Shown: piece after piece, positions 1 through 28,042 of the stretch
Layout: every line of letters begins with the position of its first letter
Numbering within the stretch: position 1 is the first letter of the stretch
Sequence record: MT862763.1
Origin: Escherichia phage vB_EcoP-U8
Direction: 5' to 3' (one strand)
DNA: 40,294 nt
Notes under the pieces: model-generated
What the model saw: only the letters and a program-made list of their open reading frames with translations
The model's database searches: none
What the model was told of the DNA's origin: nothing
Program-made: the position numbers and the translations under genes

Positions 1-982
1 AGCCTTCGTATGGGTTATCGAAGCAAGGTTCGTTACCACCAATACCGTACGGCGCAAAGATGCCAACCGCAGCAAGCGTGTCATCCTTGACCTTAGCCGT
101 AAACTCGTCCTTCTGCTCCTCGGTCAGACCACAAGCATTAACCACCATGCCATCCTCAAGCAGCACCTCAAAGCCAATCACCTTACCTTCGTTAGCCTTG
201 CCCGGAGTCCCCCACACGAGGCCACATACAGTTCCGTCGATGGTCTCCTCTGGCTTCATTTTCCACATTCCCGACTTCTTGCCACGCTTATATTTACCCA
301 GTGGGTCCTTGACTACCAGACCCTCGTGTCCTTCCAGACGCTTCTGTTCGTACAGGGAGTTGAGCGACTCAAGGTCATAGACCGTGTGTGACTCAGACAG
401 AGCCCAGTCGATTTCCGGGAAGTATTTCTGGAGGAGAGGGACGATAGATTCGGCCTTCAGGCGTGTGACGCTATGGATAGGACCTTCGGCTTTCGGGTCA
501 GCAATGGTTGTCATGTCGATGACACCGTAGACCACAACCTGAAGTCGTGACCGGGATCCCCAGAACGGGAGCTTCTTTCCACCAGTCGCCGGCGAATAGT
601 ATTCAGCGAACTCCTCGTTGTTAGGCTTGAGCCACTTCGTTCGGATGAGACCTGAGGAGGTGTTGAAGTCTACACCTTTGACCATGACCTCGCCATCAAT
701 CATCATGCCCACACCTTCGTAGCCGGATTGACGCAGGAACCATCGCCAGTCAGCTTGGGTCCACGCATTACCTAACTCAGAGTTCATCCACTCCAAGGCT
801 GGTAGAGGTTTCGACTCGCGGCTAAGCCAGTAGGTCTCACCTTCACGCAGGACCAGGAGGTTCAGGCGCACACCATCGTACTTCACTTCAGCTTCCAGAG
901 ACCCGGCTGCTTCCAGTGCCTTCTTAATTCCAGACTCAGAGTAATCTACAGCGCGGTGCGGGTTAGTTTTGATAGTTGTCAT
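1..982 (-). CDS. ATP-dependent DNA ligase (T7 gene 1.3-like), 5' part; runs off window start, C-terminal codons at 40207..40294
   Basis: Own RC translation from ATG at 980-982: MTTIKTNPHRAVDYSESGIKKALEAAGSLEAEVKYDGVRLN... with KYDG adenylation motif and collinear match to T7 ligase as recalled. Absent from the six-frame track because it has no in-window stop. Confidence 0.85.
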   Translation of the reverse strand, partial: MTTIKTNPHRAVDYSESGIKKALEAAGSLEAEVKYDGVRLNLLVLREGETYWLSRESKPLPALEWMNSELGNAWTQADWRWFLRQSGYEGVGMMIDGEVMVKGVDFNTSSGLIRTKWLKPNNEEFAEYYSPATGGKKLPFWGSRSRLQVVVYGVIDMTTIADPKAEGPIHSVTRLKAESIVPLLQKYFPEIDWALSESHTVYDLESLNSLYEQKRLEGHEGLVVKDPLGKYKRGKKSGMWKMKPEETIDGTVCGLVWGTPGKANEGKVIGFEVLLEDGMVVNACGLTEEQKDEFTAKVKDDTLAAVGIFAPYGIGGNEPCFDNPYEG

Positions 983-2113: not shown

Positions 2114-4795
2114 TTAAGCGAATGCAAAGTCTGAAGACAAGATGTCTTCGATATTCAGTTTACCTTTCTTCGGAAGCTCAGGCAACTTGTCTCTCTGGCT
2201 CTCGTGAAGCTGGTATTCAAACTGCTCGTAGAAGTCAAGCAGCACATCGTTGTCGCGGTAGGTCTCGACCATCGTCTCACGGACTCCACGGAACAGATAC
2301 TCAGCGTCAGCCGGGATGGTCCCGAAGCTATCGTGAATCACTGCGAATGACATCACGCCATATTTGCGGTGCGTGTGTACTACAGTCTTGCGGAGGTGGC
2401 TACCATCTTGTGAGTGGACGAAGTTCGGGCTAATGCCTGACTCCTGCTTGTGCTTGTCCAGCTCTTTCTTCGTGCCTTTGTTGACGGTAGGCTGAAGGTT
2501 GAATGACCCTAAGAACATCAGGTTCAGACGAGTGGTGTCCTTCTTGCGGTATTCCTGCCAGACAGGGAAACCATCAGGTGTGACCCAGTGTACCGGAAGA
2601 CAAGGCTTCAGGATTTCTCCAGTCTTCTTGTCCTTCACTTCAGCAGCAAGCAGCTTGGCAGCACCCTGAAGCCATTTCATCGCGTCAACCGCAGCAACTA
2701 CGGTCACACTCACAGCTTCCCAAATCATCTTAGCCATGAAGCGAGATGCTTGGCTTGGTTCAGTGAACATAGCGCCAGACCCTGAGTCAATCGCTGGCAT
2801 CACGATGTCCTCGTAAACTTGGTCTGCGAAGCCGTACTCTTTCGACCCGTAGGCCAGAGTCATGACCGAACGCTTAGTGACCTTTCGTGACATACCGTAG
2901 GTCAGCCACTGACGGGCAAGCTCTCGTGTCCCCAGCTTGAGACGCTCGGTAATCTCACCAGTTTTCTTGTCCTCGTGAGTTACCATCTCGTTGTCCGTAC
3001 CGTTAACCAGTAGGACTTTAAGCTCCTCCTCAATGCGGTCAGACACGATGCGGTAGATGTCTTGGACCTTACCGGATGGCGTCAGGTTTACTGCATGTCC
3101 ACCGATGTGGTCGCGAAGCATAGCGCTGAAGTGCTGAATCCCAGAGCAGGACCCATCGAACGCTATCGGCAGCGAGCAGGAGTAAGACAAGCCGTGGTGC
3201 ATTACGCCAGCATACTCGAAGCAGAACGCTAGGAAGCAGAACGGAGAGTCTAACTTGCCCCACCACTCAATGCTATCCATCGGTGCCTTGGCAGCAGCCA
3301 TGATGTTGTCGTGGTTATCTTCCACCCACTTGATACGCTCCTCGAAGGTGACTTTATCGACACCCGCGCAGTTTGCACCGTGGACCTTCAGCCATTTGAA
3401 ACCATCAGCACCAATAGGCTTACCGACTGCCAGAGTCAGAAGACCCTTTTGCATGTCGTTACCCTGAGGGTTGAACATCGGCACAGCGTAGACGCGACCG
3501 CGCCAGTCCATGTTATACGGGAACCAGATGGCCTTGAACTGAGAGAACTTGTTCGCTTGGTTGACGATAAAGCTCAGTGACAATCTTCGTGACTGTCTGG
3601 CCTTCTCGCGGCGATAGATACCAGCAGCAGCCTTCTTCCATGCCTTGAGTTCTTCTTCAGTCTCACCCGCATAGTCCTCAGGCTTCAGCGGTTCCATCTG
3701 AGGGATGTCATCAATAGGCGTGTTGTTCAGCTTCTCGACCATGTTCACCACTTCCAGAACCTTCTTGTTCACTTTCCAAGGTGTATTCTGAATGATGTTC
3801 ACAGCGTCATAGACTTCAGGCATATACACGTCTTCGTAGCGTGCTACCGCAGACTTAGACCCTAAGCGAATCAGTGGTAATGGTCTGCGTCCTTTGGCCC
3901 AGTACCCACCGCCTACGACACCAGTCCACGGCTTAGGTGGAACGACGCAAGGCTGGTAGACTGGAGCTATACCCGCAAGGCTGAATCCTCGTTGTGCCAT
4001 CTTCTTGACCCAGAAGTCTGACAGGTGGACCATCTCAACGTCAGCCGCTGCATTGCCAGCACCGTAACGCTTAAGCTCGACCAGTTGTGTGGACTGGATG
4101 ACAATCTCCAGCATCTTGATTCCAACGTGGACAGCCTCGGTCGGACTCCAAGTCCCCCACGCATCTTCCAGTTGGCCTTGCTCCAGCATGGATGCCTCGA
4201 CCGCTTGCATGTAGGCTTTCTTGTAGGACGCCCCGGCCCGCTTATTCAGGTTATCAGCTATCGCCTTCTTGAAGTGCTCTTTCTCCTTGTCACGGATGCG
4301 ACCGAAGCGGATTTCGTCCTCAAGTGTGCGACCTATCGCTGAGGCCATCGGTGTAATCGGTATCCCTTCAGGCTTGACCAGCTTGGAGAGTATGACCTTC
4401 AGTATGATAACCGCAGCAGACTCGCAGGAGATGCGCAAAGAGCGGACCTTTACGGCCTTCTCTTCAGTGCTCAACATGGTGAACGCTACGCTCGGACGAG
4501 AGGTTGACAGCTTCCCGTCTGGACCTTCATGCCACTCCTTGACGGCTTGCGCAATCTTAGGGACCAGAGTCTGCATCAAAGGCTTGGCGACCTGATTGTC
4601 TGCCAGTTCCCCTCGCTCAGTCTGTCTCTCAAGGTTCTTGATGAAACGTCGCTCGCCTTCAGTGTATGCCTCGTGCTCAAGCTGAAGCTGTTTGACTGCA
4701 AGGTCTTGCCCGTAGTGGTCAGCCAGTAGGTTAAACGGCTCAATGGCGTTCGACACATCAGAGAAGTCGTGCTTGTCAATAGAGATGACGCTCAT
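2114..4795 (-). CDS. Single-subunit DNA-directed RNA polymerase (T7 gene 1-like)
   Basis: 893 aa; collinear with T7 RNAP as recalled (MSVISIDKHDFSD..., ...ILSSDFAFA C-terminus, NMDWRGRVYAV, HDSFGT motifs). Confidence 0.97.
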   Translation of the reverse strand: MSVISIDKHDFSDVSNAIEPFNLLADHYGQDLAVKQLQLEHEAYTEGERRFIKNLERQTERGELADNQVAKPLMQTLVPKIAQAVKEWHEGPDGKLSTSRPSVAFTMLSTEEKAVKVRSLRISCESAAVIILKVILSKLVKPEGIPITPMASAIGRTLEDEIRFGRIRDKEKEHFKKAIADNLNKRAGASYKKAYMQAVEASMLEQGQLEDAWGTWSPTEAVHVGIKMLEIVIQSTQLVELKRYGAGNAAADVEMVHLSDFWVKKMAQRGFSLAGIAPVYQPCVVPPKPWTGVVGGGYWAKGRRPLPLIRLGSKSAVARYEDVYMPEVYDAVNIIQNTPWKVNKKVLEVVNMVEKLNNTPIDDIPQMEPLKPEDYAGETEEELKAWKKAAAGIYRREKARQSRRLSLSFIVNQANKFSQFKAIWFPYNMDWRGRVYAVPMFNPQGNDMQKGLLTLAVGKPIGADGFKWLKVHGANCAGVDKVTFEERIKWVEDNHDNIMAAAKAPMDSIEWWGKLDSPFCFLAFCFEYAGVMHHGLSYSCSLPIAFDGSCSGIQHFSAMLRDHIGGHAVNLTPSGKVQDIYRIVSDRIEEELKVLLVNGTDNEMVTHEDKKTGEITERLKLGTRELARQWLTYGMSRKVTKRSVMTLAYGSKEYGFADQVYEDIVMPAIDSGSGAMFTEPSQASRFMAKMIWEAVSVTVVAAVDAMKWLQGAAKLLAAEVKDKKTGEILKPCLPVHWVTPDGFPVWQEYRKKDTTRLNLMFLGSFNLQPTVNKGTKKELDKHKQESGISPNFVHSQDGSHLRKTVVHTHRKYGVMSFAVIHDSFGTIPADAEYLFRGVRETMVETYRDNDVLLDFYEQFEYQLHESQRDKLPELPKKGKLNIEDILSSDFAFA

Positions 4796-4864
4796 ACTTA
4801 AAGTCCTTGTTATTAGTCTTTCACTTAAAGTCTCTTTGGTCTTTCACTTGGAGTCTTAGACCTT

Positions 4865-4887
4865 GAGTCCTATAGTGATAGTTAAGT
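4865..4887 (-). promoter_or_regulatory. Phage RNA polymerase promoter directly upstream of the RNAP gene
   Basis: Plus strand CCTATAGTGATAGTTAAG at 4869..4886; +1 about 75 nt upstream of the RNAP start codon. Confidence 0.65.
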
Positions 4888-4892
4888 CAGAA

Positions 4893-5219
4893 TTACTTGC
4901 ATATCAGCGGGTTAGCGTGGAGATGACTGAAGTCACCATGAGTCGTGTGCTTGATGGTTGACCGTTGGTCTATCGCCTTCCAGCCTGAGACTAAAAGTTT
5001 ACCATCGTCAGTGATTGGTCGTCCACCATACACCAGACACATTAGTTCGGACTTATGGCCCTCAGCCCGGAGTCTTGCTTGCAGTACCCGGTCCCGCTCC
5101 TGCTGTTGACGTGCGGAGTGACTTGACGTTCCGTGACGATACCCGGTAGCCAGTAGGCTTAACATTTGCATGTCTGCGTCCATAGAGTGTACCAGATTAA
5201 TCCCGTATGACTTGTTCAT
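4893..5219 (-). CDS. hypothetical early protein
   Basis: 108 aa ORF in early region; His-rich segments; no recognised family. Confidence 0.45.
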   Translation of the reverse strand: MNKSYGINLVHSMDADMQMLSLLATGYRHGTSSHSARQQQERDRVLQARLRAEGHKSELMCLVYGGRPITDDGKLLVSGWKAIDQRSTIKHTTHGDFSHLHANPLICK

Positions 5220-5593
5220 TACAGTTTGCTCCCAAGTGTTGCTATATCCCAGACGTTCGCTAAGTTACGCATGAATCGTCCGTTAGGTTGACGTACAGTC
5301 CAGCTACCCAGACGTACATATTTGAATTTGTAGACTTTACGCGCTTTGTTGATGTCTCTCACCAGCACGTAGGCGATAAGTCCATAGCCTATGGCTATCA
5401 ATAGTGCGATACTCATAGTCATAAGCCCCATAACAGTTGAGTAAGGACCGGTAGTTTGCAGACTAGAGTAAACATTCCCCACGCTACGAAGCCTGAGATA
5501 GTCCAGATGATTGCAGTGCTCATAGTTAACTCCTATTAATTCAAGTGGTAATCTTTGAGGCCACCTATCAGTCGATGACCTCTCGTCTATCAC
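5219..5593 (-). CDS. hypothetical early protein with predicted transmembrane helix (start uncertain)
   Basis: 124 aa ORF; hydrophobic stretch MSIALLIAIGYGLIAYVLV; a 33-aa alternative-frame ORF with strong SD overlaps near 5430..5531. Confidence 0.3.
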   Translation of the reverse strand: MIDERSSTDRWPQRLPLELIGVNYEHCNHLDYLRLRSVGNVYSSLQTTGPYSTVMGLMTMSIALLIAIGYGLIAYVLVRDINKARKVYKFKYVRLGSWTVRQPNGRFMRNLANVWDIATLGSKL

Positions 5594-5636
5594 TCAGTAC
5601 CCGCCTGTCAGCGTTATGGTCAGGCTGTGATACACG

Positions 5637-5792
5637 TTACTTATCCTCAGCGTGCAAACTGTCGTGTATGCGCTTGCGGCCCTCATAGACCGCTTTCAGG
5701 TGACGCATAGTCGCATCGTGGTTTAATTGCCCGGTCTTGACCATAAGCCGGGCGTTAGTGACGTGGTGCTGGCAGAGACCATAAGTTACCAT
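5637..5792 (-). CDS. hypothetical early protein
   Basis: ATG at 5790-5792 overlaps kinase stop (AGATGGTAA), suggesting translational coupling; 51 aa. Confidence 0.3.
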   Translation of the reverse strand: MVTYGLCQHHVTNARLMVKTGQLNHDATMRHLKAVYEGRKRIHDSLHAEDK

Positions 5793-6310
5793 CTTGATGA
5801 CCTCACCTCTTGCAGCTTGGACACAAGGAAGAAACAATCAACCAGTATCAACTTGCCATCCACAACCCGTACATTACGTGGGCTTATCTCAAACTGAATG
5901 TCTGACCCGAAGTTAGCGCAAGCGTCCAGCGCCATCATAACATCCATCAGGCCCTCCCGCACAGTCTCAGACTCAGACCTGTCGTGTGCATCTTGGAATA
6001 TCTCGTACCACTTGTGATACAGTTCGGCAGGTCGAGAGAATACCGGAGACCGTGAGAAGCAGTCTCGCAACACCTGATAGAGTTGCCATTGGTCATCGTC
6101 TAAATGCGCCTTGAGACCTCGTGTTGGTGGCATGTATTCCATCTCATATGTGCCTACCTCAATCATTTTGACTTCAGGGAACAGTGGAGACTCAGGGAAC
6201 CATCCCCACGCCATACACTCCTTGATTGGGTCTGAAGATACCAGAATCACACGCTTCCCGCAGTCCTTCAGGTAACACTTAGTGAATGCGCCTTTTCCGA
6301 TCAGTTTCAT
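5786..6310 (-). CDS. putative protein kinase, gp0.7-like but short (kinase domain only)
   Basis: 174 aa; N-terminal IGKGAFTKCY glycine-rich loop and VDGKLILVDCFF resemble T7 gp0.7 kinase region; SD AAAGGA 8 nt upstream. Confidence 0.45.
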   Translation of the reverse strand: MKLIGKGAFTKCYLKDCGKRVILVSSDPIKECMAWGWFPESPLFPEVKMIEVGTYEMEYMPPTRGLKAHLDDDQWQLYQVLRDCFSRSPVFSRPAELYHKWYEIFQDAHDRSESETVREGLMDVMMALDACANFGSDIQFEISPRNVRVVDGKLILVDCFFLVSKLQEVRSSRW

Positions 6311-6380
6311 CTTGTTTATCCTTTAGTTAGTGACTATCAGTCAGGCCGCTATCAGTCTAACGACCTGTAGTTAATCACTC

Positions 6381-6635
6381 TCAGTTAGCGAAATAAGGAG
6401 CTGAGACGCCCACTGTAGGACTCACGGTTATCTGCGAGTCTATCAGGTATGTCTCGTTGTCTATACGCACAGTATCGACGCTGTAGTTGCTGAACTGCTT
6501 GCTTGATACCTTGCGCACTACCACACGGTGACGCGCTCCTGTCATCTCTTTAAGCTGAATCCACGCATAACCTTTAGTGTTCACGAATACTTCATTGCGA
6601 TTAGTGATTGTGCTTAAGTGTTTCATAGTGTCCAT
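6381..6635 (-). CDS. hypothetical first early protein (gene 0.3 position; not Ocr-like)
   Basis: 84 aa ORF; start may be the Met at codon 4 (better SD spacing). Confidence 0.45.
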   Translation of the reverse strand: MDTMKHLSTITNRNEVFVNTKGYAWIQLKEMTGARHRVVVRKVSSKQFSNYSVDTVRIDNETYLIDSQITVSPTVGVSAPYFAN

Positions 6636-6804
6636 CCTTTAAGTTAGTGACTATCAGTCAGGGCCTTCAGATGTAGACTCAAAGGCCCTGTAGTTAGTCG
6701 CTATCGGCGCACATTAAGAGTTTATCCAGATTGTTAAAGAGCATTCCCTTCAGTCAGAGGACTTCAGGTAGACCGTTTCAGTGTCGGTCGTCACCGTTGT
6801 TTCG

Positions 6805-6843
6805 ATGTGGTACAGCTTACATCTTATCGTTACTGCTTGTCAA
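6805..6843 (-). promoter_or_regulatory. Candidate host sigma70 early promoter (T7 A2/A3-like architecture)
   Basis: RC reads TTGACA-N18-TAAGCT-GTACCACATCGAAAC, resembling T7 A3 (TTGACA...TACGAT GTACCACATGAAAC) as recalled. Confidence 0.4.
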
Positions 6844-7104
6844 CTACTTTCTGTCATCTGCCTGTTGTTCGTATGACTTATCAGGCTGTCTACTTAACCG
6901 GGATGACCAGGCGTCTTCACTATCCGGTTGTTGCCGTGTCGTGTTGACGGAAGCTATTAGGCCATAGTCTGGACCTATAGTCAATAGGTAATTTTAAATA
7001 ATATTGATTAAGCTATCGTCGGCCCCATGGTGTAAGAGGATGTAGTCTTTGACTAACATGTCTTAGACCTTAAGTCTATATCCTTGTGTCTATTAACGTA
7101 GGTC

Positions 7105-7185
7105 TCTGACTGTAGGTAGCGGCATTACCGATGGTCGATGACTGTAGGTAGTTAGACTGTAAGTAGTTAGACTGTAGGTAGTGAC
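7105..7185. repeat. Short tandem/direct repeats (GACTGTAGGTAG x4, last three at 15-bp period) in genome-end region
   Basis: Copies at 7108, 7140, 7155 (one mismatch), 7170; lies between gene 19 and the early promoters, where T7 carries terminal-repeat and CCTAAAG-type repeats. Confidence 0.6.
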
Positions 7186-7618
7186 TCAAGGTCTGATACA
7201 GATAGAGACTCAAAGAAGACCAATAGTCCCTACCTATCGTCTTTCCCTAAGCCATAGCCACAACCTATCGTTGACCTGAAGTCTTGACCATCGGTCTAAC
7301 CTTATGATAGACTGGGGTAGGGCCTTTGGTCTGGACTAAAAGAGGGCCTATGGGGAGACTTGAGGTTCTTGAACTGTGAGATGTGGTCTCAAACTTTTGG
7401 TCCAAAACTCATCGTCACTACTGTAGACCACAGCCACTGTAGGTCAATGACCGTAGGTCAGGCGACACTAGGATAGACCAATAAGTAGGATGACCCTAAG
7501 TGAGCTTCTCTTAAGGTGTTACCTAAAGTCCTTGACTACAGTAGCTAAGGTCAGTAGAGTAGCGTCAGCTATGAACTGACCTTAGGTCTTGCTTTCGTTG
7601 ATTGTTACCATTACGGCG

Positions 7619-7957: not shown

Positions 7958-7980
7958 CTTCCCTATAGTGATAGTTAAGT
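7958..7980 (-). promoter_or_regulatory. Phage RNA polymerase promoter (phiOR position, after gene 19)
   Basis: Plus strand CCTATAGTGATAGTTAAG at 7962..7979. Confidence 0.7.
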
Positions 7981-10302: not shown

Positions 10303-10674
10303 TCAGAATCGACGTACAAGCGTCTTCTCTAGGTATGAAACAGCCCGCTGGACACTAGATGTAGTATCTCCCAGTGCGCCAATTGCTGCATTGCACTTGC
10401 GGCATAAAACCCCTCTAATCACCCCAGTGGAATGACAGTGGTCAATACACGCAGAGTCTGTATCTCCTTTCTTCCCACCTACTTTAAGCGGAGTCTTGCA
10501 AATCTCGCATGAGCTTCCCACCGAGTGCATCAGGTCCTCGAACTGTTCAAGCGTGAGACCATATAGGCTCTTTATCTGCGAAATGCGCTTAGTCCTCTTT
10601 CTTCGTTCCTCCCGTTCCTCTCGTAATTTACGAGCAGCTTGAACGTTAGCCTTTATAACATCTTCCGATACCAT
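10303..10674 (-). CDS. Endonuclease VII-family protein (putative homing endonuclease) between gene 18 and 18.5
   Basis: CEICK...IDHCHSTGVIRGVLCRKCN, the Cys/His pattern of T4 endo VII-type proteins; SD AGGAGGTGGT before ATG. Confidence 0.75.
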   Translation of the reverse strand: MVSEDVIKANVQAARKLREEREERRKRTKRISQIKSLYGLTLEQFEDLMHSVGSSCEICKTPLKVGGKKGDTDSACIDHCHSTGVIRGVLCRKCNAAIGALGDTTSSVQRAVSYLEKTLVRRF

Positions 10675-11185: not shown

Positions 11186-11252
11186 AATACCTCCATTGTT
11201 AAACGGGCCGTCCTTGACCCAAAGTTGTTACCATACGTTGGTCAGCGTGTAG

Positions 11253-14108
11253 TTAGCCCCTACCTCCACAACCTTCAAGTTTATCCAGTCGTGTTTCAAT
11301 CCTGTCGCAGCGACGTCGCTGATAAGCGGCCTCCAACCAGAAACACTGATCTGGACGAATGCCCCAGCGATTACCGGCAGCTCTAGTAAGTAGGGTATTA
11401 CCGGTTTCCACTTGACGGGTAACTTCGGTATCGACACCATCAATATTAACAGTGATAACCTCATCAACGAACTCAGGTTCATACTCATCTTCCCACTCGT
11501 CATAGCAAAGCAGACCGAAGGTAGTACCATCCAAACCATGCTTTATGAAGGTATCACGAACTTGCTGGGCAATTACCCCGAAATGCCAACGAGCAGAATC
11601 TTCACCTTTAGCCGCAATAGAAGATAACCACTTGTACGTGATTATCTGCACGTCGCCCCAGGCATCAAGGATATCATCCGAGATTTCAAACGGGTAAGTT
11701 TTTTCACGGGAGTCGGACGTATTAATAGTACCAATCGCTGCGAAGACTTGAGCCACACGTAATGCTGGGTTGCCTAAATTGTAAGCGTTATCTGTGTATG
11801 GACGTAGAGATGTATTATCTATACGCCATCGAATAGTGCCACCTACGGTTTCGGGCGACGGATTAGTAGCAAAACTAATAGACGTAGCACTCTTAAATAC
11901 CGACGATCCACCACCTAAGATAAGAGAATGTGCAGATGCGGAACTTTGTTGATCGAGGACAAGAATCTGTTCTGATTCGGTTAAAGTTTTATTACCGAAA
12001 GCCCTAGCTGCAATTCGACCTTGGGTTAATGCACCAGAGTCAGTATTATTCAGGGTTAAGCGATAAGTCTCTAAACCGATAGCCCCAGTAATTACGGTAT
12101 AACCGGAAGTGTCATAAGTTACACGCACAGTCTTACGGGTAGTTGGCCCAGTCTGATCTATAGAGAAGCTCTGATTATTCAGGTTGCTGATATGAAGCTC
12201 TATCCCAATTGGGTAGGCAACTCCATCCAGATCTGTAAGACCGGTGCTTGACGTATAGATAGTAACTGCCTTCTGCCCAGACAGCCGCATAAAGTCCAAT
12301 ACTGCTGACATTGAAGTCATGGCACTACCGGTCAGAGGGTTATAGAGTACGTCGCCTGCGAGGATTCGTGGATAAACCCCAGAAGCCATCCGAATGGTAT
12401 CGTAACCTGGAGATACCGTTGTCACCGCAGAAAAATCCAAGTCTGGGGAGTTGGAATACTCTTTGGTAATTAGGATCCCATGCGTATACGCATTCGAGGC
12501 GGTTCGGTTGTTATAGATCCATAAGGTGAACACCTCACCATTTGAATAGCAGATGCCCTCATTCTCTATACGAGAAGTCGTTAAGCCTTTAGCGTCCAGA
12601 ACACTAATAAAACCAGTAGGGGGCATTACTGCCTCCACCATTTTGTGCCCGTCAGTGCTGAATGCTTTTACTCCCTGATAATTAGTAGGTGCTTCCACAG
12701 TTGTTCCTGTAATGTAAACACCACCGAATGCCATAATCAGAACACCCGGAGCTAAACAGATTGCTTGTCGCTTAGTTTGAAGCGGCCCGTAATCAGTAGT
12801 AGTTGTCGTGATGTATCCAGCATCATACGGAGAAAATTCCGTGAAACCAGTTAATGCAAATGCGGAGTTGAAGTACGCAATAACATTACGTTGACGGTTA
12901 ATGCCCAACGCTGGGATGGCCTGTTCAACTGCCCACATTCCATTATGGAAGGAGAACTGGTTATACAGACCCACTTGGTGTAACGCTGTATAGCTAATCG
13001 TGGTGCCATAGGTCACTGCTGAGATATCAAACTCAGCTAAGTTACCATCGTAGGATCCAAGGAATAACTTAAGTGAACCATAGTAATTGGTTACGATAAT
13101 CCCCTCGGATACCGCAGAACCATTTACCCCTGTGCCTCCATTATTAGTCTGGAGATACCCTAAGTATTCACCTTCACCTGAGTAAACTACAACGAAACGT
13201 TCCGTAGCTGCGTTGTTACTTGGGCCATATGCAATGTAGATATTGCCATCATCCCCGATACAGAATGACCCCGGATAAATAAACGTCCAGTCAGGGTGCG
13301 CCGCCAGAATAGCATCGTAATCTGGGAATAGTAATGGCAGGTCAAAACTAATTTCTTTTTTATCTGCGCCAGAATTAGCCCAACGGCTGCTCAGGACTGT
13401 AGACAGTGTTTCCCCGTTTTTTGTGCCGATTAAATTTGTTCCGGTTGGTTTTGCAATATCGGCGCGCAATGACGCATCACCAACACTAACCCACGCACCC
13501 AAACCAACGCCGCCAGACGTTTCAGGAGTTGAACCAACAGGCACTGTTTTTGGCAGTCCACCATCCCAGCGGTAATACTCACCATCAGCTTCCCATAGCA
13601 GGACCTCGTTCCATGTTGTAATGTTGATGCCTTTCTCGAAGGAGCGACGGGTAATATAGCCGATTCGACCAGATGCCTGGATATTATCAGCGATTCGTCG
13701 TGCTTCGTCCTCGCTATCCTTAGCGTTGCCAGCAGAGCTACCAGCAGCATCTGCATATTCCTTCACTAAGTCAACCGTTTGGTCTCGACCTTCTTCTGCA
13801 ATATGGATAGCCTGAAGCTCTGAATTTGTCAGGTCACTAGCTGTCAACACTGAGCCATTCCTGAAATCTACCACTAAGTCAGTTCCAGTCTGACGGTGAA
13901 TACGAACTATGTCGAAACCTGATTGGTCAACCAACATCTCAATCATCGTTGGATTAAGGAATCGGTAATCTCGACCAACTTCCAGTACACGGTTCAGGGT
14001 AGGGTTAGAGCTATTCACCAGCGTAACAACAACAAACGTTCTGGATAGGTAGTCGAACTCAATCCTGTACTGAGTGTTTCCTGAAGGGAATTGTGTAATC
14101 GTGGACAT
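11253..14108 (-). CDS. Tail fiber/tailspike (gp17-like N-terminal adapter, divergent distal domain, C-terminal chaperone-like domain)
   Basis: 951 aa vs 553 in T7; first ~150 aa match T7 gp17 N-terminus (FVVVTL, LVVDFRNGSVL); C-terminus contains NTSDSREK...WHFGVIAQQV resembling intramolecular chaperone (peptidase S74-like) domains. Confidence 0.9.
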   Translation of the reverse strand: MSTITQFPSGNTQYRIEFDYLSRTFVVVTLVNSSNPTLNRVLEVGRDYRFLNPTMIEMLVDQSGFDIVRIHRQTGTDLVVDFRNGSVLTASDLTNSELQAIHIAEEGRDQTVDLVKEYADAAGSSAGNAKDSEDEARRIADNIQASGRIGYITRRSFEKGINITTWNEVLLWEADGEYYRWDGGLPKTVPVGSTPETSGGVGLGAWVSVGDASLRADIAKPTGTNLIGTKNGETLSTVLSSRWANSGADKKEISFDLPLLFPDYDAILAAHPDWTFIYPGSFCIGDDGNIYIAYGPSNNAATERFVVVYSGEGEYLGYLQTNNGGTGVNGSAVSEGIIVTNYYGSLKLFLGSYDGNLAEFDISAVTYGTTISYTALHQVGLYNQFSFHNGMWAVEQAIPALGINRQRNVIAYFNSAFALTGFTEFSPYDAGYITTTTTDYGPLQTKRQAICLAPGVLIMAFGGVYITGTTVEAPTNYQGVKAFSTDGHKMVEAVMPPTGFISVLDAKGLTTSRIENEGICYSNGEVFTLWIYNNRTASNAYTHGILITKEYSNSPDLDFSAVTTVSPGYDTIRMASGVYPRILAGDVLYNPLTGSAMTSMSAVLDFMRLSGQKAVTIYTSSTGLTDLDGVAYPIGIELHISNLNNQSFSIDQTGPTTRKTVRVTYDTSGYTVITGAIGLETYRLTLNNTDSGALTQGRIAARAFGNKTLTESEQILVLDQQSSASAHSLILGGGSSVFKSATSISFATNPSPETVGGTIRWRIDNTSLRPYTDNAYNLGNPALRVAQVFAAIGTINTSDSREKTYPFEISDDILDAWGDVQIITYKWLSSIAAKGEDSARWHFGVIAQQVRDTFIKHGLDGTTFGLLCYDEWEDEYEPEFVDEVITVNIDGVDTEVTRQVETGNTLLTRAAGNRWGIRPDQCFWLEAAYQRRRCDRIETRLDKLEGCGGRG

Positions 14109-14154
14109 TATGCCTCCTTTGTGATTTAAATGGAGACCTATGGTAGCGCCTCCA

Positions 14155-14177
14155 GTTTCCTATAGTGATAGTTTAGT
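14155..14177 (-). promoter_or_regulatory. Phage RNA polymerase promoter (phi17 position)
   Basis: CCTATAGTGATAGTTTAG at 14159..14176; overlaps gene 16 stop codon; 50 nt upstream of gene 17 ATG. Confidence 0.75.
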
Positions 14178-17100
14178 CCTTGATGTGGATGCCTTGCTCC
14201 TCAAACGTTCCAAGCAGCAGCTTCTGGGTAATGGGGTCGTTCGGAACCAGTTCACGGAACGTATTATACATCCCGGTCATGTAGTCACGCTCGTTGACAC
14301 GAGTATCAGCCTTGAGGTAGCCAGCCAAGTTGTAAGCCGAAGCGCCAACGTTAGCAGCATATCCGAAAGCTGGAACCTGCTCCAAGAAGTTACCAACAAC
14401 ATTCATCACAGGGTCACTTGTAGCTGCACCATACGCGATGGCACGCTCAGGCTTCTCTGTAGGAGAACGAGGTAGGATAGAAGAACGGAGCATCTTAGTG
14501 TCCTCATATCCAGCGATGCCTCCCAGAATGTTAGCTACCCCAAGTGGGCCACCAAGATGTGAACTACGGGACAGGGCCGCATAGCCAATCATCGTTGGGT
14601 CCAGAGCTTGCTTAAGGTAGTCACGGTCTCGACCATCCTGCATAGCATAAGCCTTGACATGCGCCTGAGCCATGTAGTAGATACCAGCCAGACCCATAGA
14701 CATCACGGTCGACAGTGCAGCGTCAATCGCTCTGTTGTTCTTCGTGGCGTTATAGAAGGTTCGCATGGTTCTCCCATTGATAGACTTGATGACGAAGTTC
14801 TTAAACTGAAGGACAGTCTTAGCGAGAGGACCATAAGCCTTGGCGTCCATGTTTGACAGCTTATGAGGCCGGAGTAACGTCTCGTCAGCGATGGTGTCAC
14901 CCATACGCCACAGGTCCATAGCCCTTGGGTCCTGACTAAACGCCTTCTTATCCTTGATGGTGTACTTCCCGTCTGGACCACGAGTCACTGACTCACGGAT
15001 TAGGGACTTAATACCCTTCCACTGCTCGTCAGAGATACCAGCGGTCTTCAGCCAGCGGTCATCAAACTTACGCTTACTACCAGTCAGACTATGCTCCACG
15101 ATGTCAGACAGGAAGCCTTGACGTCCAGCATCTAACAGGTAGTTTGTCGTACCGTTGAGGACTTTAGTGAACGGAGAGCGTACTGCAAGTTCACCAGTGT
15201 AATACTTGGCAGTCCCCAGAGCTGTGGCTGTACCACTACCTAGGTCACTGTAAGATCTCAGACGGTCAATGACATCCTGTTTAGACGGACGGATTGAGTC
15301 ATCCAGTTCCTTACCGAAGATAACATTGTGCAGGTCCTTAATCTCTGAGGCCCCTACCTTCTTGTTACGGAAGGCTAGGTCACGGAACATAGGGACTCCA
15401 TGTAGCAATGCACGAACGTTACCACGAGCTAGCATACCACCAATCTCCGTTAAGTTCTGAACACCCATGTAGGCATTCTTAGCGAAGAACGATAGGTCTG
15501 TCATTGTGCGCATCACGGTAGCGAAGGCAGCATCGTCAGCACCATCACGTCGGGCACGACCAGTGAGAATCTTCAAGGTGTCACGTAAGGTCGAGACCTC
15601 ACCTTTCAACTTGCCGTCATCACCAGCCTTGTTCATCATGGTCTCAACCAAGTCCTTCATATCCTTCGTGGTTTTGCCTGTACCAGCCATGATAGCAATA
15701 TCGCCATTAACTCGACGGTTGTAGGCCGGGACAATCTTGTCCATGTCCCACTCACGCAGGTTGTTGACACTGAAGGTCTGACCGTTAGGCAGGACGATTG
15801 ACATATCACTATCGAACAGGTTACGAGCCTCAAGGAAGCTGTTGTTCTCCAGACCAACCAGGCCGTTGATGTTCTCTTCCATTACGGATGAACGTTCGAA
15901 CTGCTCGGTGTGAGAGATACCATAAGCCTTATCGTTTGCGTACTTATCTACCGCAGCCGCAAGTCCTTCTGGAGTCAACGTAGGGTCAGCCTCTAAGAGT
16001 GCCTCGTCCACACGTTTCTTGACCTCAGGTCGAGACGCATAGCTGGTCAACCATGACTTCTTGATGGCCTCCTGTAGTGCCTCTGGACTTCCAAGCTCCT
16101 TGATGTACAGCTCCTTCATCTGTTTGCTATACACATGCGGGACGTAGGTTCCCTTGAAGCGGCTACCCGGAAAGATAGACTGAGCGTCTGGACGACCAAA
16201 CATCGCTGGGTTCTCCATCATCTCACGCTTGGCGTCGAACTGGTTCTTCAGTAGGTCATAGACTTTCAGTTCTCCAGGAGTCAGTTCAGCCTTCAGGTTT
16301 CCGCTACCGTCTTCGATAGCCATAGACACACGCTGGTAGATGTCCTGACGGAATGCGCCAGAGTCTCGCCAGAATGCAGTCTGGAAGTACGGGTCCTTTA
16401 GTGCCTCAGTAACCGCATCGTCGATGTCGTTGTAGAACCGATGGTCCACAGAACGAAGTCTCTCGAACACGTCTGACGCAGTTGTCCCGATTTTACCTGA
16501 GGCCCCAGACTGCATACCAGTAGGTGAACGCACTAAGTCAGCAGCTACTCCACGAATCTCAGGGTTCTCAGACCGAAGCAGCTTCAGGCCAATCTCGGTA
16601 AGTCCACCAAGGTTCACACCAGCAGCGGCACGTTCCGGCTCAATCACTTCGTCAAAGACTTGACGTGTCTTAGGGTTCAGAGGGTTCTCACCAATCAGGA
16701 TTGAACCGTCTTCCAGTCGTACACTTCCCGGCTCATTCGGAACGTCAGCGAACTTAACGCCTTGATGACTAAAGGTCTGCTCACCTTCCTGAATAGGTAG
16801 ACGAGATAGGTCCTGACCATCAACGTTACGAGCAGTCTCACGAGCTTCCAGACGTGTAGCTGGACCAGCGAACTCATTAGTGTTTCGACCTAAGGCTCTG
16901 CCTAATCCATCAGCGATAGCAGTCATACCTCCACCGAAGAGAGCACCACCAAGGATAGCCTCAGCCACATGAGCATCCCCACCAGCCACTGATGTACGGG
17001 CCATCTCTGACACACCAGCAAGTGCTCCAGATTGAGCAGCCACGGTGAACATCTTATTGACCAGCTTAGCACCTTTACCAACCTGTCCAGCAATAGGAAC

Positions 17101-18060
17101 GTATGTCAGAGGGTCCACGCCAGCACCAATAACACCAGCAGCTAACTGAGCGCCAGTCCCAGCCTTGGCCTTCTCTTGGTCCAACTTCTGGTTCTCAATC
17201 GCCAAGTTAATAAGCTCAGTCAGGTTCTGAGGGGAGCCACCAGTAATGACTCCGTAATACTGAGGCAGAACCCCAGCGTTACGAATCTGGTCCAGCTCCT
17301 CACGAGACCACTTATGGTTGTTCCATCGCGTCGGGTTGAACACATCGCCAATGACATCCAGTGAGTCCTCAGTCTGACCAGCTCTGATAGCCACGCCGAC
17401 CATAGAGTTCTTCACTTCAGCTTCTGTAGCCGCACCGAAACCGAACCACGTAGAGCGATCCTCTCGTTCCTGCATGGTCTCGCCAGTAGCCTTATAGAAC
17501 ATCTCACCGAACGATTCGTTGGGAGCTTCAGGTGCTTGACCCTCAATGTTCATACCAGCAGCGGTCGGAAGGTTCTCACCCAGAGCTACTTTAGGTTTAT
17601 CCTTGAGTCCTTCCGTGAGTGCGTCAAATACGTTAGCGCTTACTGGTGGAGTCTTTGGGCTAATGCCATTGAGTGCTCGTGCGACTCCCTTCTGATAGAC
17701 TTCAGGGTCGTACCGGGAGCCTGTCTCATGGAAGCTGATAGCTTGAGCCAGAGAAGACAGGGTGTCAGGGTCCGATAGGTCGAGACTCTGGGTCGCCGGG
17801 ATGCCCGTAGCCGAAGCCACTGACTGAATGTACGCCTGAGTGTCGTTCTCGTTCGGAGGTGCCCAACGGTTGATAATCTTCTCGATAGAGTCATAACCTT
17901 GGCGACCGTAGCTTTGAAGGTTTTTAGCTAAGGCTCGGACCCCAGATTCAGGACTATCGAAGATAACGAACGCACCATCATCACCTATAGCACCTTCCCA
18001 TTGGTCTTTGGACTTACGGAGGTTCCCGGGGTTTGAATTCCTTACTCCACGTGTCGCCAT
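14173..18060 (-). CDS. Internal virion protein D (gp16-like) with non-canonical N-terminal domain
   Basis: 1295 aa; long collinear match to T7 gp16 from about residue 250 onward (ENPAMFG, GTYVPHVY, AYNRRVNGDIAIMG); N-terminal ~120 aa does not match the T7 transglycosylase motif. Confidence 0.9.
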   Translation of the reverse strand: MATRGVRNSNPGNLRKSKDQWEGAIGDDGAFVIFDSPESGVRALAKNLQSYGRQGYDSIEKIINRWAPPNENDTQAYIQSVASATGIPATQSLDLSDPDTLSSLAQAISFHETGSRYDPEVYQKGVARALNGISPKTPPVSANVFDALTEGLKDKPKVALGENLPTAAGMNIEGQAPEAPNESFGEMFYKATGETMQEREDRSTWFGFGAATEAEVKNSMVGVAIRAGQTEDSLDVIGDVFNPTRWNNHKWSREELDQIRNAGVLPQYYGVITGGSPQNLTELINLAIENQKLDQEKAKAGTGAQLAAGVIGAGVDPLTYVPIAGQVGKGAKLVNKMFTVAAQSGALAGVSEMARTSVAGGDAHVAEAILGGALFGGGMTAIADGLGRALGRNTNEFAGPATRLEARETARNVDGQDLSRLPIQEGEQTFSHQGVKFADVPNEPGSVRLEDGSILIGENPLNPKTRQVFDEVIEPERAAAGVNLGGLTEIGLKLLRSENPEIRGVAADLVRSPTGMQSGASGKIGTTASDVFERLRSVDHRFYNDIDDAVTEALKDPYFQTAFWRDSGAFRQDIYQRVSMAIEDGSGNLKAELTPGELKVYDLLKNQFDAKREMMENPAMFGRPDAQSIFPGSRFKGTYVPHVYSKQMKELYIKELGSPEALQEAIKKSWLTSYASRPEVKKRVDEALLEADPTLTPEGLAAAVDKYANDKAYGISHTEQFERSSVMEENINGLVGLENNSFLEARNLFDSDMSIVLPNGQTFSVNNLREWDMDKIVPAYNRRVNGDIAIMAGTGKTTKDMKDLVETMMNKAGDDGKLKGEVSTLRDTLKILTGRARRDGADDAAFATVMRTMTDLSFFAKNAYMGVQNLTEIGGMLARGNVRALLHGVPMFRDLAFRNKKVGASEIKDLHNVIFGKELDDSIRPSKQDVIDRLRSYSDLGSGTATALGTAKYYTGELAVRSPFTKVLNGTTNYLLDAGRQGFLSDIVEHSLTGSKRKFDDRWLKTAGISDEQWKGIKSLIRESVTRGPDGKYTIKDKKAFSQDPRAMDLWRMGDTIADETLLRPHKLSNMDAKAYGPLAKTVLQFKNFVIKSINGRTMRTFYNATKNNRAIDAALSTVMSMGLAGIYYMAQAHVKAYAMQDGRDRDYLKQALDPTMIGYAALSRSSHLGGPLGVANILGGIAGYEDTKMLRSSILPRSPTEKPERAIAYGAATSDPVMNVVGNFLEQVPAFGYAANVGASAYNLAGYLKADTRVNERDYMTGMYNTFRELVPNDPITQKLLLGTFEEQGIHIKD

Positions 18061-22239: not shown

Positions 22240-22289
22240 AAGGGCCTATAGTCCCTATAGTGATAGTTAAGGTAAATCTATAGGCCCTT
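22240..22289. repeat. Perfect 12-bp inverted repeat (AAGGGCCTATAG / CTATAGGCCCTT) enclosing the phi13 promoter
   Basis: Arms at 22240..22251 and 22278..22289, 26-nt spacer containing promoter core. Confidence 0.8.
22250..22272 (-). promoter_or_regulatory. Phage RNA polymerase promoter (phi13 position)
   Basis: CCTATAGTGATAGTTAAG at 22254..22271. Confidence 0.75.
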
Positions 22290-28019: not shown

Positions 28020-28042
28020 TGTTCCTATAGTGATAGTTTAGG
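28020..28042 (-). promoter_or_regulatory. Phage RNA polymerase promoter (phi9 position)
   Basis: CCTATAGTGATAGTTTAGG at 28024..28042; overlaps portal stop codon. Confidence 0.75.

Follow-up and report, generated by a model that had tools for sequence, protein, structure and literature searches.

Which surface structure does the tail spike of Escherichia phage vB_EcoP-U8 recognise, and what fold does it use? We analysed the whole of record MT862763.1, a window of 40,294 nucleotides. The spike is the product of gene 17 of a complete, permuted Kayfunavirus genome, and it is the sole host-recognition tailspike of this K1F-like (T7-family) coliphage. Considering all the evidence, the protein is likely to be a modular trimeric receptor binding protein (RBP) with a swappable propeller head and a self-cleaving chaperone. 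A preliminary description had proposed a mosaic of a T7-like adapter, a non-T7 centre and a chaperone-like C-terminus; this division is confirmed, and six modules can now be distinguished, see Table 1.

Table 1. Coordinates of the gene 17 features in the window.
Feature	Residues	Positions	Strand	Basis
Promoter-like site for phage RNA polymerase, AACTATCACTATAGGAA, just 5' of gene 17, at the T7 phi17 position		14157..14173	-	read from sequence
Shine-Dalgarno AGGAGG, ATG 4 nt further on		14113..14118	-	read from sequence
Gene 17 tailspike ORF, 951 aa + stop	1-951	11253..14108	-	ORF list, translation; 96% identical relatives
T7 gp17-type N-terminal tail-attachment domain and helical linker	1-145	13674..14108	-	PF03906, 7boz_a, 9vvr_A
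Tail_spike_N (TSP1/Gp66-type) domain, module junction	147-243	13380..13670	-	PF18668, CBA120 TSP chains
Overlap of two homology tracts, gene nt 517-645	173-215	13464..13592	-	nucleotide match limits of relatives
Predicted five-bladed beta-propeller "platform", receptor-binding head	~248-556	12441..13367	-	
Alpha/beta "tower" domain, C-terminal to the propeller	~586-673	12090..12353	-	AF2 secondary structure, family conservation, Foldseek
Stalk before the cleavage site, probably trimeric	674-797	11718..12089	-	low-confidence monomer model
Peptidase_S74 C-terminal intramolecular chaperone domain	798-951	11256..11717	-	PF13884, 3gw6, 3gud
Codon of Ser798, predicted nucleophile and cleavage site	798	11715..11717	-	aligned with the S911A position of 3gw6
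Codon of Lys803, predicted general base of the Ser-Lys dyad	803	11700..11702	-	aligned with Lys916 of 3gw6

According to the ORF list and the translation, the reading frame fills positions 11253-14108 of the minus strand exactly, from ATG to stop. PHROG assignments place a gp16 homologue upstream (14173-18060) and the genes for the holin, the small terminase, Rz and the large terminase downstream, so the spike gene, with gp16 on one side and the holin and terminase genes on the other, stands where gene 17 belongs in the Autographiviridae. The window contains 11 phage promoter-like sites, all of them on the minus strand (chance expectation 0.09). A scan for sigma-70 promoters and terminators around gene 17 gave none above chance. 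A 103-aa ORF overlapping the gene (11228-11539) has no PHROG match and is regarded as spurious.

The similarity to T7 gp17 is confined to the N-terminus, as had been proposed. The Pfam domain PF03906 matches residues 10-121 (E 3.6e-16, 59.7 bits, gathering cut-off 25.2), and residues 12-124 of the T7 gp17 chain 7boz_a align with residues 6-118 (E 9.8e-16). The tail-bound gp17 N-termini of the solved virions 8dsp and 8e4g were also matched. Past residue ~121, neither Pfam nor the comparison with PDB sequences shows any resemblance to gp17. The following domain is matched by PF18668 at residues 152-211 (E 3e-18, 66.1 bits, gathering cut-off 25), and the CBA120 TSP chains 5w6h, 4oj5 and 6nw9 align with residues 147-243. 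The preliminary description left the strand unstated and missed this domain.

The junction is also visible in the relatives of the gene. The spike genes of the deposited Kayfunaviruses vB_Eco_ZCEC02, LI10P1, ST1749 and ST0223 are 96% identical to it, both in nucleotides and in amino acids. Residues 150-950 are found at 91% identity in ~47.7 kb siphoviruses, which we tentatively assign to Kagunavirus, and in Gamaleyaviruses; the head is present in at least three phage morphotype groups. A search of 5,426 complete E. coli genomes for prophage copies of the head, as a pointer to serotype, found none. In Kayfunaviruses with other heads the match covers the gene from nucleotide 1 to about 645, whereas in the siphoviruses and Gamaleyaviruses that share the head of U8 it starts at nucleotide 517-523 and ends at 2814. 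The two tracts overlap inside the PF18668 domain, and, judging from these match limits, residues 173-215 are likely the recombination junction. The head family is a good case for the transfer of a receptor-binding module among very different phages and hosts.

At the extreme C-terminus, PF13884 matches residues 798-859 (E 1.8e-12, 47.8 bits, gathering cut-off 22). The chaperone of the K1F endosialidase (endoNF), 3gw6, aligns with residues 760-945 (E 7e-38), and the phi29-family appendage chaperone 3gud is similar to the C-terminus as well (E 5e-20). The S74-type similarity suggested beforehand is thus borne out by PF13884 and 3gw6, at a level well above chance, and the two motifs that had been pointed out are located in this part, NTSDSREK from residue 796 and WHFGVIAQQV from residue 841; the domain is, however, about 154 residues long (798-951) and not ~120. 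Lys803 follows Ser798 by five residues, as Lys916 follows Ser911 in endoNF, and the family alignment of homologues shows 90% or higher conservation for both residues. The preceding stalk has a pLDDT of about 30 in the monomer model. Here the PDB sequence matches upstream of the S74 domains start at residues 729-760 (7y5s, 4uw8, 6eu4, 3gw6), and PF12219 matches residues 762-797 weakly (E 0.12).

Propeller-type heads are a minority among phage receptor binders. In the AF2 model of the head there are 20 short strands, which we interpret as five antiparallel four-stranded blades. The best structural neighbours found by Foldseek are the RBPs of phi11, 80alpha, NF5 and P68, and all the top ones are propellers. 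The head is consequently predicted to be a five-bladed propeller and, on the model, related at the fold level to staphylococcal phage receptor binders. The tower (pLDDT 63-86) is conserved jointly with the propeller in a family of 255 clusters, whose matches cover about residues 22-445 of the domain, and when Foldseek aligns the model with the RBPs of phi11 and 80alpha, 465-566 columns are covered. The predicted order, a five-bladed propeller platform and then a tower, is the plan of phi11 Gp45. The family is uncharacterised and has no Pfam model, and its homologues include proteins of staphylococcal phages. Its profile matched PDB sequences in the S74 and stalk regions only, with no match to the propeller.

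Two glutamates are invariant, and an arginine, a lysine and a glutamine conserved, across 98 highly diverged members of the head family that carry many different anchors. Probably E335, R407, K446, Q448, E515 and E517 form a conserved polar pocket, which we infer to lie on the top face of the propeller. That the propeller is a glycan-recognition module we regard as very likely. Whether it would in addition cleave or modify the glycan, as a true depolymerase, is a closer call, for which we see slightly less than an even chance.

The strongest competing reading is that the head is a purely lectin-like, non-enzymatic binder, like the staphylococcal RBP platforms, and that the glycan layer is crossed undegraded. 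The identity of the best structural matches speaks for it, as does the fact that the sequence homologues occupy RBP positions in staphylococcal phages, and no glycoside hydrolase, lyase or esterase family was detected in the spike with Pfam or NCBIfam. However, an invariant glutamate pair with Arg, Lys and Gln kept over 98 members points more often to catalysis, or to one chemical moiety that is shared, than to variable lectin sites. Further, phage ZCEC08, with the same head, gives halos, and the usual description of Kayfunavirus spikes is that of enzymes (PMC11990801). We consider such a binder a serious but somewhat less favoured possibility.

Far less plausible is that the protein is a T7-like fibre, its tip directed at a protein receptor or the core of rough LPS and not at a polysaccharide. 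The N-terminal homology to T7 gp17 would fit such a fibre, but it ends at residue ~121, and the combination of a TSP-N domain, a globular head and an S74 chaperone is the architecture of a glycan-targeting tailspike. In addition, relatives with this head occur in Gamaleyavirus and the tentatively assigned Kagunavirus, both listed in the BASEL paper (PMC11990801) among the groups known for dependence on surface glycans. The preliminary description had asked for its proposal to be checked against a T7-like fibre tip and a lack of S74 similarity; S74 similarity was found, and the head is predicted to be a propeller. The same description had guessed a beta-helical receptor-binding or depolymerase domain for the centre. 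The right-handed beta-helix is the commonest fold of phage depolymerases (86% against 12% propellers in the DepoScope survey, PMC11326577), but as a reading of this head it is refuted by the AF2 model, with its short strands and apparent antiparallel blades, as well as by top structural matches that are all propellers and by Pfam, where no pectate-lyase or beta-helix family was matched, and we give it hardly any weight.

Equally little credence is due to the reading in the GenBank labels of near-identical genes and in the ZCEC08 paper, where the protein would be an endosialidase (endo-N-acetylneuraminidase) acting on the K1 polysialic acid capsule. The homologues of ZCEC02, ZCEC08, PBM-2, PBM-3 and ST1UNAM are annotated in this way, and both the K1F-like nature of the phage and the match of the spike's C-terminus to the endoNF chaperone would fit. 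At the homology level the reading is effectively refuted: neither the GH58 endosialidase propeller PF12217 nor the barrel PF12195 gives a Pfam match in the spike at E<=1, the only PDB sequence match to endoNF is the chaperone construct 3gw6, and a six-bladed sialidase-fold propeller was not found. The label, which is widespread in the databases and has been repeated by a published phage-therapy paper, is wrong; it is drawn only from the shared chaperone domain.

For a spike with a swappable propeller head, we propose the following working. The T7 gp17-type N-terminus (residues 1-145) would dock the spikes on the tail, possibly as six trimers per tail by analogy with T7. Tail_spike_N (147-243) may serve as a conserved joint for the exchange of heads between phage families. 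The propeller and tower (~248-673) would recognise a host surface glycan and thereby set the host range. The S74 domain (798-951) would drive trimerisation and the folding of the stalk (674-797), and would then cut itself off at Ser798 by means of the Ser798/Lys803 dyad; from the aligned dyad, the mature spike is predicted to comprise residues 1-797.

The nature of the glycan can be approached from the hosts of related phages. The host of LI10_P1, whose spike is 96% identical, belongs to ST131 O25:H4, and its capsule is predicted to be K2. The host of phage 6947, UCS2, is labelled "UCS" like UCS1, an O25b:K100 isolate of ST131. As the target, we give an even chance to a polysaccharide on the surface of ExPEC/ST131-type E. 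coli, either the O25b O-antigen or a K2/K100-type capsule. In the literature, nothing was found on the spike target of HC6 or LI10_P1 beyond the naming of HC6 and 6947 in the ZCEC08 paper; the papers on ZCEC08 and ST1749 report halos and the names of hosts but no more, and the group 2 capsule paper contains nothing about this spike. Dpo52 (PMC12873362) was discarded as a clue, being an unrelated P22-like spike. Knowing the glycan would aid the choice and engineering of therapeutic phages against pandemic ExPEC.

Descriptions of K2 and K100 speak of polymers that are teichoic-acid-like and made of ribosyl-ribitol-phosphate (references cited in PMC13171606). Together with the hosts of LI10_P1 and 6947, this is a clue to a bolder reading, which we consider unlikely: the coliphage head, from a family shared with phages of staphylococci, whose relative phi11 has wall teichoic acid as its ligand, would be specialised for teichoic-acid-like polyol-phosphate capsules, perhaps acting as a novel phosphodiesterase or glycosidase of propeller fold through the invariant E515/E517/K446/Q448 pocket. 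The capsules concerned would be those of pandemic ExPEC, e.g. ST131: K2, a galactosyl-glycerol-phosphate, and K100/K18/K22, which are ribosyl-ribitol-phosphates. If true, a receptor-binding module would have crossed the Gram divide, tracking one conserved chemical motif.

The comparison with staphylococcal phages has two levels. The phi11 RBP Gp45 (5efv; PF21311, Phage_RBD_prop) shares with the predicted head the succession of a five-bladed platform and a tower at the level of the fold. PF21311 has no match in the spike at E<=1 (hmmscan), while Gp45 itself scores 395.6 bits, and hhalign gave a probability of 4% for the 98-member head family against Gp45 and of 9% against a 121-sequence alignment of the Gp45 family. 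Because all these searches were negative, we claim only a fold-level relationship to PF21311. Gp45 also differs in having a BppU-like stem as its anchor and no S74 chaperone, in its Gram-positive host and in its ligand, wall teichoic acid.

True sequence homologues of the propeller and tower are found at RBP positions in other phages of Staphylococcus and Mammaliicoccus, among them a 670-aa protein of HHU-22, proteins of Twort-like phages such as phiSA_BS1 gp020, and PHROG 22693. They are 24-31% identical over 93-98% of the 428-aa query (E 1e-16 to 2e-42) and retain the KRQ and IExEG motifs, but their N-terminal anchors are different, and a scan of three of them gave no S74 domain. The name "glycerophosphoryl diester phosphodiesterase", given to PHROG 22693 and the staphylococcal homologues, lacks Pfam support: no GDPD domain was found in the spike, nor, at E<=0.01, in the homologue of HHU-22 or in gp020 of phiSA_BS1.

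Closer to home, K1F gp17 (endoNF) has the same genus-level backbone and, like the U8 spike, a T7 gp17-like anchor, a propeller-containing head, a stalk and an S74 domain with a Ser-Lys dyad; the alignable part is the chaperone with the end of the stalk. The heads are unrelated in sequence, and K1F has a sialidase propeller of six blades and a nested barrel where U8 is predicted to have five blades and a tower; the PF18668 junction domain of U8 is a further difference. The catalytic part of endoNF we take to be PDB 1v0e/3gvj.

The same exchange of heads has been described for O-antigen-specific spikes (PMC10408124, 2023), the phenomenon we see for residues 150-950 in other phage groups; the spikes studied there, in contrast, have an assigned serogroup. 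The modular plan of a T7-type anchor, a swappable head and a self-cleaving chaperone is standard for K1F-like phages. The solved Kayfunavirus-type spike 9vvr_A (843 aa) is about 95% identical over residues 1-226 of the U8 spike (anchor and TSP-N) and has a related S74 C-terminus (E 3.3e-28), while its central receptor-binding part cannot be aligned, i.e. it carries another head on the same chassis.

The tailspike gene (gene 17) is an open reading frame of 951 codons, from ATG to stop, at exactly 11253-14108 on the minus strand according to the ORF list and translation. The preliminary description had placed it exactly but gave no strand. An AGGAGG ribosome-binding site lies 4 nt ahead of the ATG, and the 17-nt motif AACTATCACTATAGGAA is found upstream of the gene. 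The motif AACTATCACTATAGG(A/G)A occurs in 11 copies in the window, all on the minus strand, compared with 0.09 expected by chance. These copies would form the promoter set for the phage RNA polymerase, and the upstream one would directly serve the spike gene.

Besides gp16, the neighbours of the gene are a holin, the small terminase, the Rz spanin and the large terminase. From these and the location of the RNA polymerase gene, we conclude that the window is a complete, circularly permuted Kayfunavirus genome of ~40.3 kb. All genes run on the minus strand, and the early region continues across the window ends. Along ~25 kb the identity to Kayfunaviruses such as LM33_P1, HC12 and T147P5 is 94-95%. 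No second receptor-binding protein was recognised among the other ORFs of the window, and the product of gene 17 is therefore taken as the only tailspike. A 123-aa endonuclease VII/HNH-like ORF (10303-10674, minus strand; PHROG 2914, E 6.8e-31) separates the small terminase from the Rz spanin; the close relative vB_Eco_ZCEC02 has only ~110 nt there. A homing-endonuclease insertion is the probable explanation. A 103-aa reading frame (11228-11539, minus strand), out of frame with the spike gene and overlapping its 3' end, matches no PHROG and was taken as a chance ORF.

Features of the genome (nucleotide positions) and domains of the spike (aa) with the evidence for each
Feature	Position	Strand	Evidence
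Candidate promoter, upstream of spike gene	14157-14173	minus	17-nt motif
Candidate promoter	28022-28038	minus	17-nt motif
Candidate promoter	22252-22268	minus	17-nt motif
Candidate promoter	7960-7976	minus	17-nt motif
gp16, internal virion protein with lytic domain	14173-18060
T7-type RNA polymerase	2114-4795	minus
T7 gp17-type anchor and linker	aa 1-145		PF03906 aa 10-121, E 3.6e-16; T7 gp17 residues 12-124 align with aa 6-118
Tail_spike_N junction domain	aa 147-243		PF18668 aa 152-211, E 3e-18
Predicted five-bladed beta-propeller	aa ~248-556		AlphaFold2 model and fold searches
Predicted alpha/beta "tower"	aa ~586-673		AlphaFold2 model, pLDDT 63-86
Stalk	aa 674-797		PDB sequence matches start at aa 729-760; unmodelled as monomer
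Peptidase_S74 chaperone	aa 798-951		PF13884 aa 798-859, E 1.8e-12; 3gw6 E 7e-38

All three Pfam matches score well above the curated cut-offs, and by sequence the spike carries a T7-type anchor, as had been proposed, a Tail_spike_N domain and an S74 domain with its dyad. In a PDB sequence search, aa 1-226 share ~95% identity with the solved spike 9vvr_A, and aa 760-945 match 3gw6, the K1F endosialidase chaperone construct. In the latter alignment the S911A position corresponds to Ser798 and Lys916 to Lys803, the predicted Ser-Lys dyad; each is at least 90% conserved among homologues. The mature spike is predicted to comprise residues 1-797. The motifs noticed earlier, NTSDSREK and WHFGVIAQQV, start at residues 796 and 841; the chaperone is of the suggested S74 type, at ~154 rather than ~120 residues.

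Pfam and NCBIfam gave no match to residues ~245-760, and PHROGs place the central part in tail-spike families and PHROG 22693. An AlphaFold2 model of aa 227-797 was built on a 10-sequence alignment. In fragment numbering, residues 24-330 are for the most part modelled with confidence (block pLDDT 70-95 in most places, apart from short loops of low confidence) and contain twenty beta-strands, residues 360-447 form a small alpha/beta domain, and the last 124 residues are unmodelled as a monomer. We assign the strands to five four-stranded blades, the N-terminal strand closing the last one. Foldseek against the PDB matches the receptor-binding proteins of phi11, 80alpha, NF5 and P68 (E ~1e-11 to 1e-9, 465-566 columns), with generic propellers scoring five orders of magnitude worse. 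Against BFVD, the top match is the fibre of Staphylococcus phage vB_SscM-1 (E 7.8e-34), and the first endosialidase propeller appears only at rank 45 (E 0.022), which argues strongly against a sialidase head. Since every structural comparison leads to five-bladed propellers, the head, i.e. the central receptor-binding part, is predicted to be a propeller "platform" with a "tower"; the model's strands and the Foldseek matches all but exclude the beta-helical receptor-binding or depolymerase domain expected from the preliminary description.

A tblastn search with residues 248-675 matched only 49 of 50,697 phage records: 13 near-identical coliphage spikes, a few distant Kayfunavirus variants (37-46% identity), 28 Staphylococcus or Mammaliicoccus phages, and for the rest Weissella phiYS61 and Erwinia UCB24. 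The staphylococcal proteins, distinct from the Gp45 set, are true sequence homologues of the head. The protein of siphovirus HHU-22 shares 31% identity over 425 residues (E 3e-49); its gene directly follows those for a tail endopeptidase and an SGNH hydrolase, and is itself followed at once by a baseplate gene of the BppU family. An exhaustive HMMER search collected 255 clusters, with T7-type, BppU, collagen, tail-collar and other anchors, and an S74 domain in 18 of 56 members scanned. This family of propeller receptor binders, which crosses phyla, is uncharacterised. PF21311 gave no hmmscan match in the spike at E<=1, and hhalign of the head family with phi11 Gp45 and the Gp45 family gave probabilities of 4% and 9%; in the absence of this sequence signal the spike is not filed under PF21311. 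Several staphylococcal homologues are named glycerophosphoryl diester phosphodiesterase (GDPD) without Pfam support. The same module, also named GDPD, is seen in Twort-like phiSA_BS1 gp020 (4675-7581 of that phage's own locus), which has no Pfam match at all, and in PHROG 22693; for the Twort-like proteins the name may be propagated annotation.

Across 98 family members, each only 21-37% identical to the spike, Q448 and E515 are invariant, K446 and E517 are kept in 99%, E335 in 94% and R407 in 91%. Judged by strand order in our blade assignment, all six would sit at, or immediately ahead of, strand one or three of a blade, on the propeller face that usually holds ligand or active sites.

Very probably, the anchor would dock spike trimers on the tail, the S74 domain would chaperone stalk trimerisation and then remove itself at Ser798, and the propeller would recognise a surface polysaccharide and set host range. 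That the propeller also degrades this glycan has close to, or slightly below, an even chance. The invariant carboxylates favour it; however, no catalytic family was detected by Pfam or NCBIfam, the conserved residues might bind an ion with a structural role, and the solved structural relatives are, to our knowledge, binders. Degradation would also agree with the halos around plaques of ZCEC08, a phage with this head (PMC12001532), and with the enzymatic nature generally described for Kayfunavirus spikes (PMC11990801).

LI10_P1 was isolated on an ST131 strain of phylogroup B2 and serotype O25:H4, for which capsule type K2 is predicted in silico (Supplementary Tables 1 and 2, 10.1101/2023.11.22.567924). 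Phage 6947 was grown on "UCS2", and the similarly labelled UCS1 is ST131 O25b:K100 (PMC8541385). K2 is a teichoic-acid-like polymer and K100 a ribosyl-ribitol phosphate, according to references cited in PMC13171606. A teichoic-acid-like capsule as target is attractive because the head is homologous to staphylococcal receptor-binding proteins, but we consider it improbable, and the O25b O-antigen is no less plausible.

Over its whole length the gene is 96% identical in the Kayfunaviruses vB_Eco_ZCEC02, LI10P1, ST1749 and ST0223. Residues 150-950 are found at 91% identity in the ~47.7 kb siphoviruses HC6, 6947, HC8A, ZCEC08 and ST1UNAM and in Gamaleyavirus PBM-2, and at 84% in EK8; PBM-3, a relative of PBM-2, has the same head (97% over aa 248-675). 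Many other Kayfunaviruses match only nucleotides 1 to ~645 of the gene, and both tracts of homology have nucleotides 517-645 in common, within the PF18668 domain. No copy was found in 5,426 complete E. coli genomes. The homologues in MN218775.2 (ECG4) and MN518893.2 (LS3), annotated "peptidoglycan lytic exotransglycosylase", have apparent frameshifts, and the encoded protein aligns only in patches with scrambled stretches between.

Two records give Salmonella as host. For ST1749 and ST0223 (PQ390404.1, PV695553.1) the stated hosts are Vibrio parahaemolyticus and Salmonella; the ST1749 paper reports that Vibrio and Salmonella are lysed, and classes ST1749 as a Bruynoghevirus. Both genomes carry a Kayfunavirus-type block of spike, gp16, holin and small terminase. 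These host claims are doubtful; they and the classification fit poorly with the 96% identical spike on E. coli phages.

Near-identical spikes are annotated "endo-N-acetylneuraminidase" (PV833354, PP213477, PV029541, PV053165, OQ469755), and the ZCEC08 paper discusses colominic-acid activity (PMC12001532). This annotation looks wrong, because the likeness to the K1F enzyme is confined to the C-terminal chaperone. Membership in the endosialidases, beta-helix depolymerases, PF21311 and GDPD was tested, and each failed. The gene itself is already public at 96% identity, though misannotated; its head belongs to the propeller receptor-binder family. K1F gp17 has the same plan and chassis, but the head of the spike differs.
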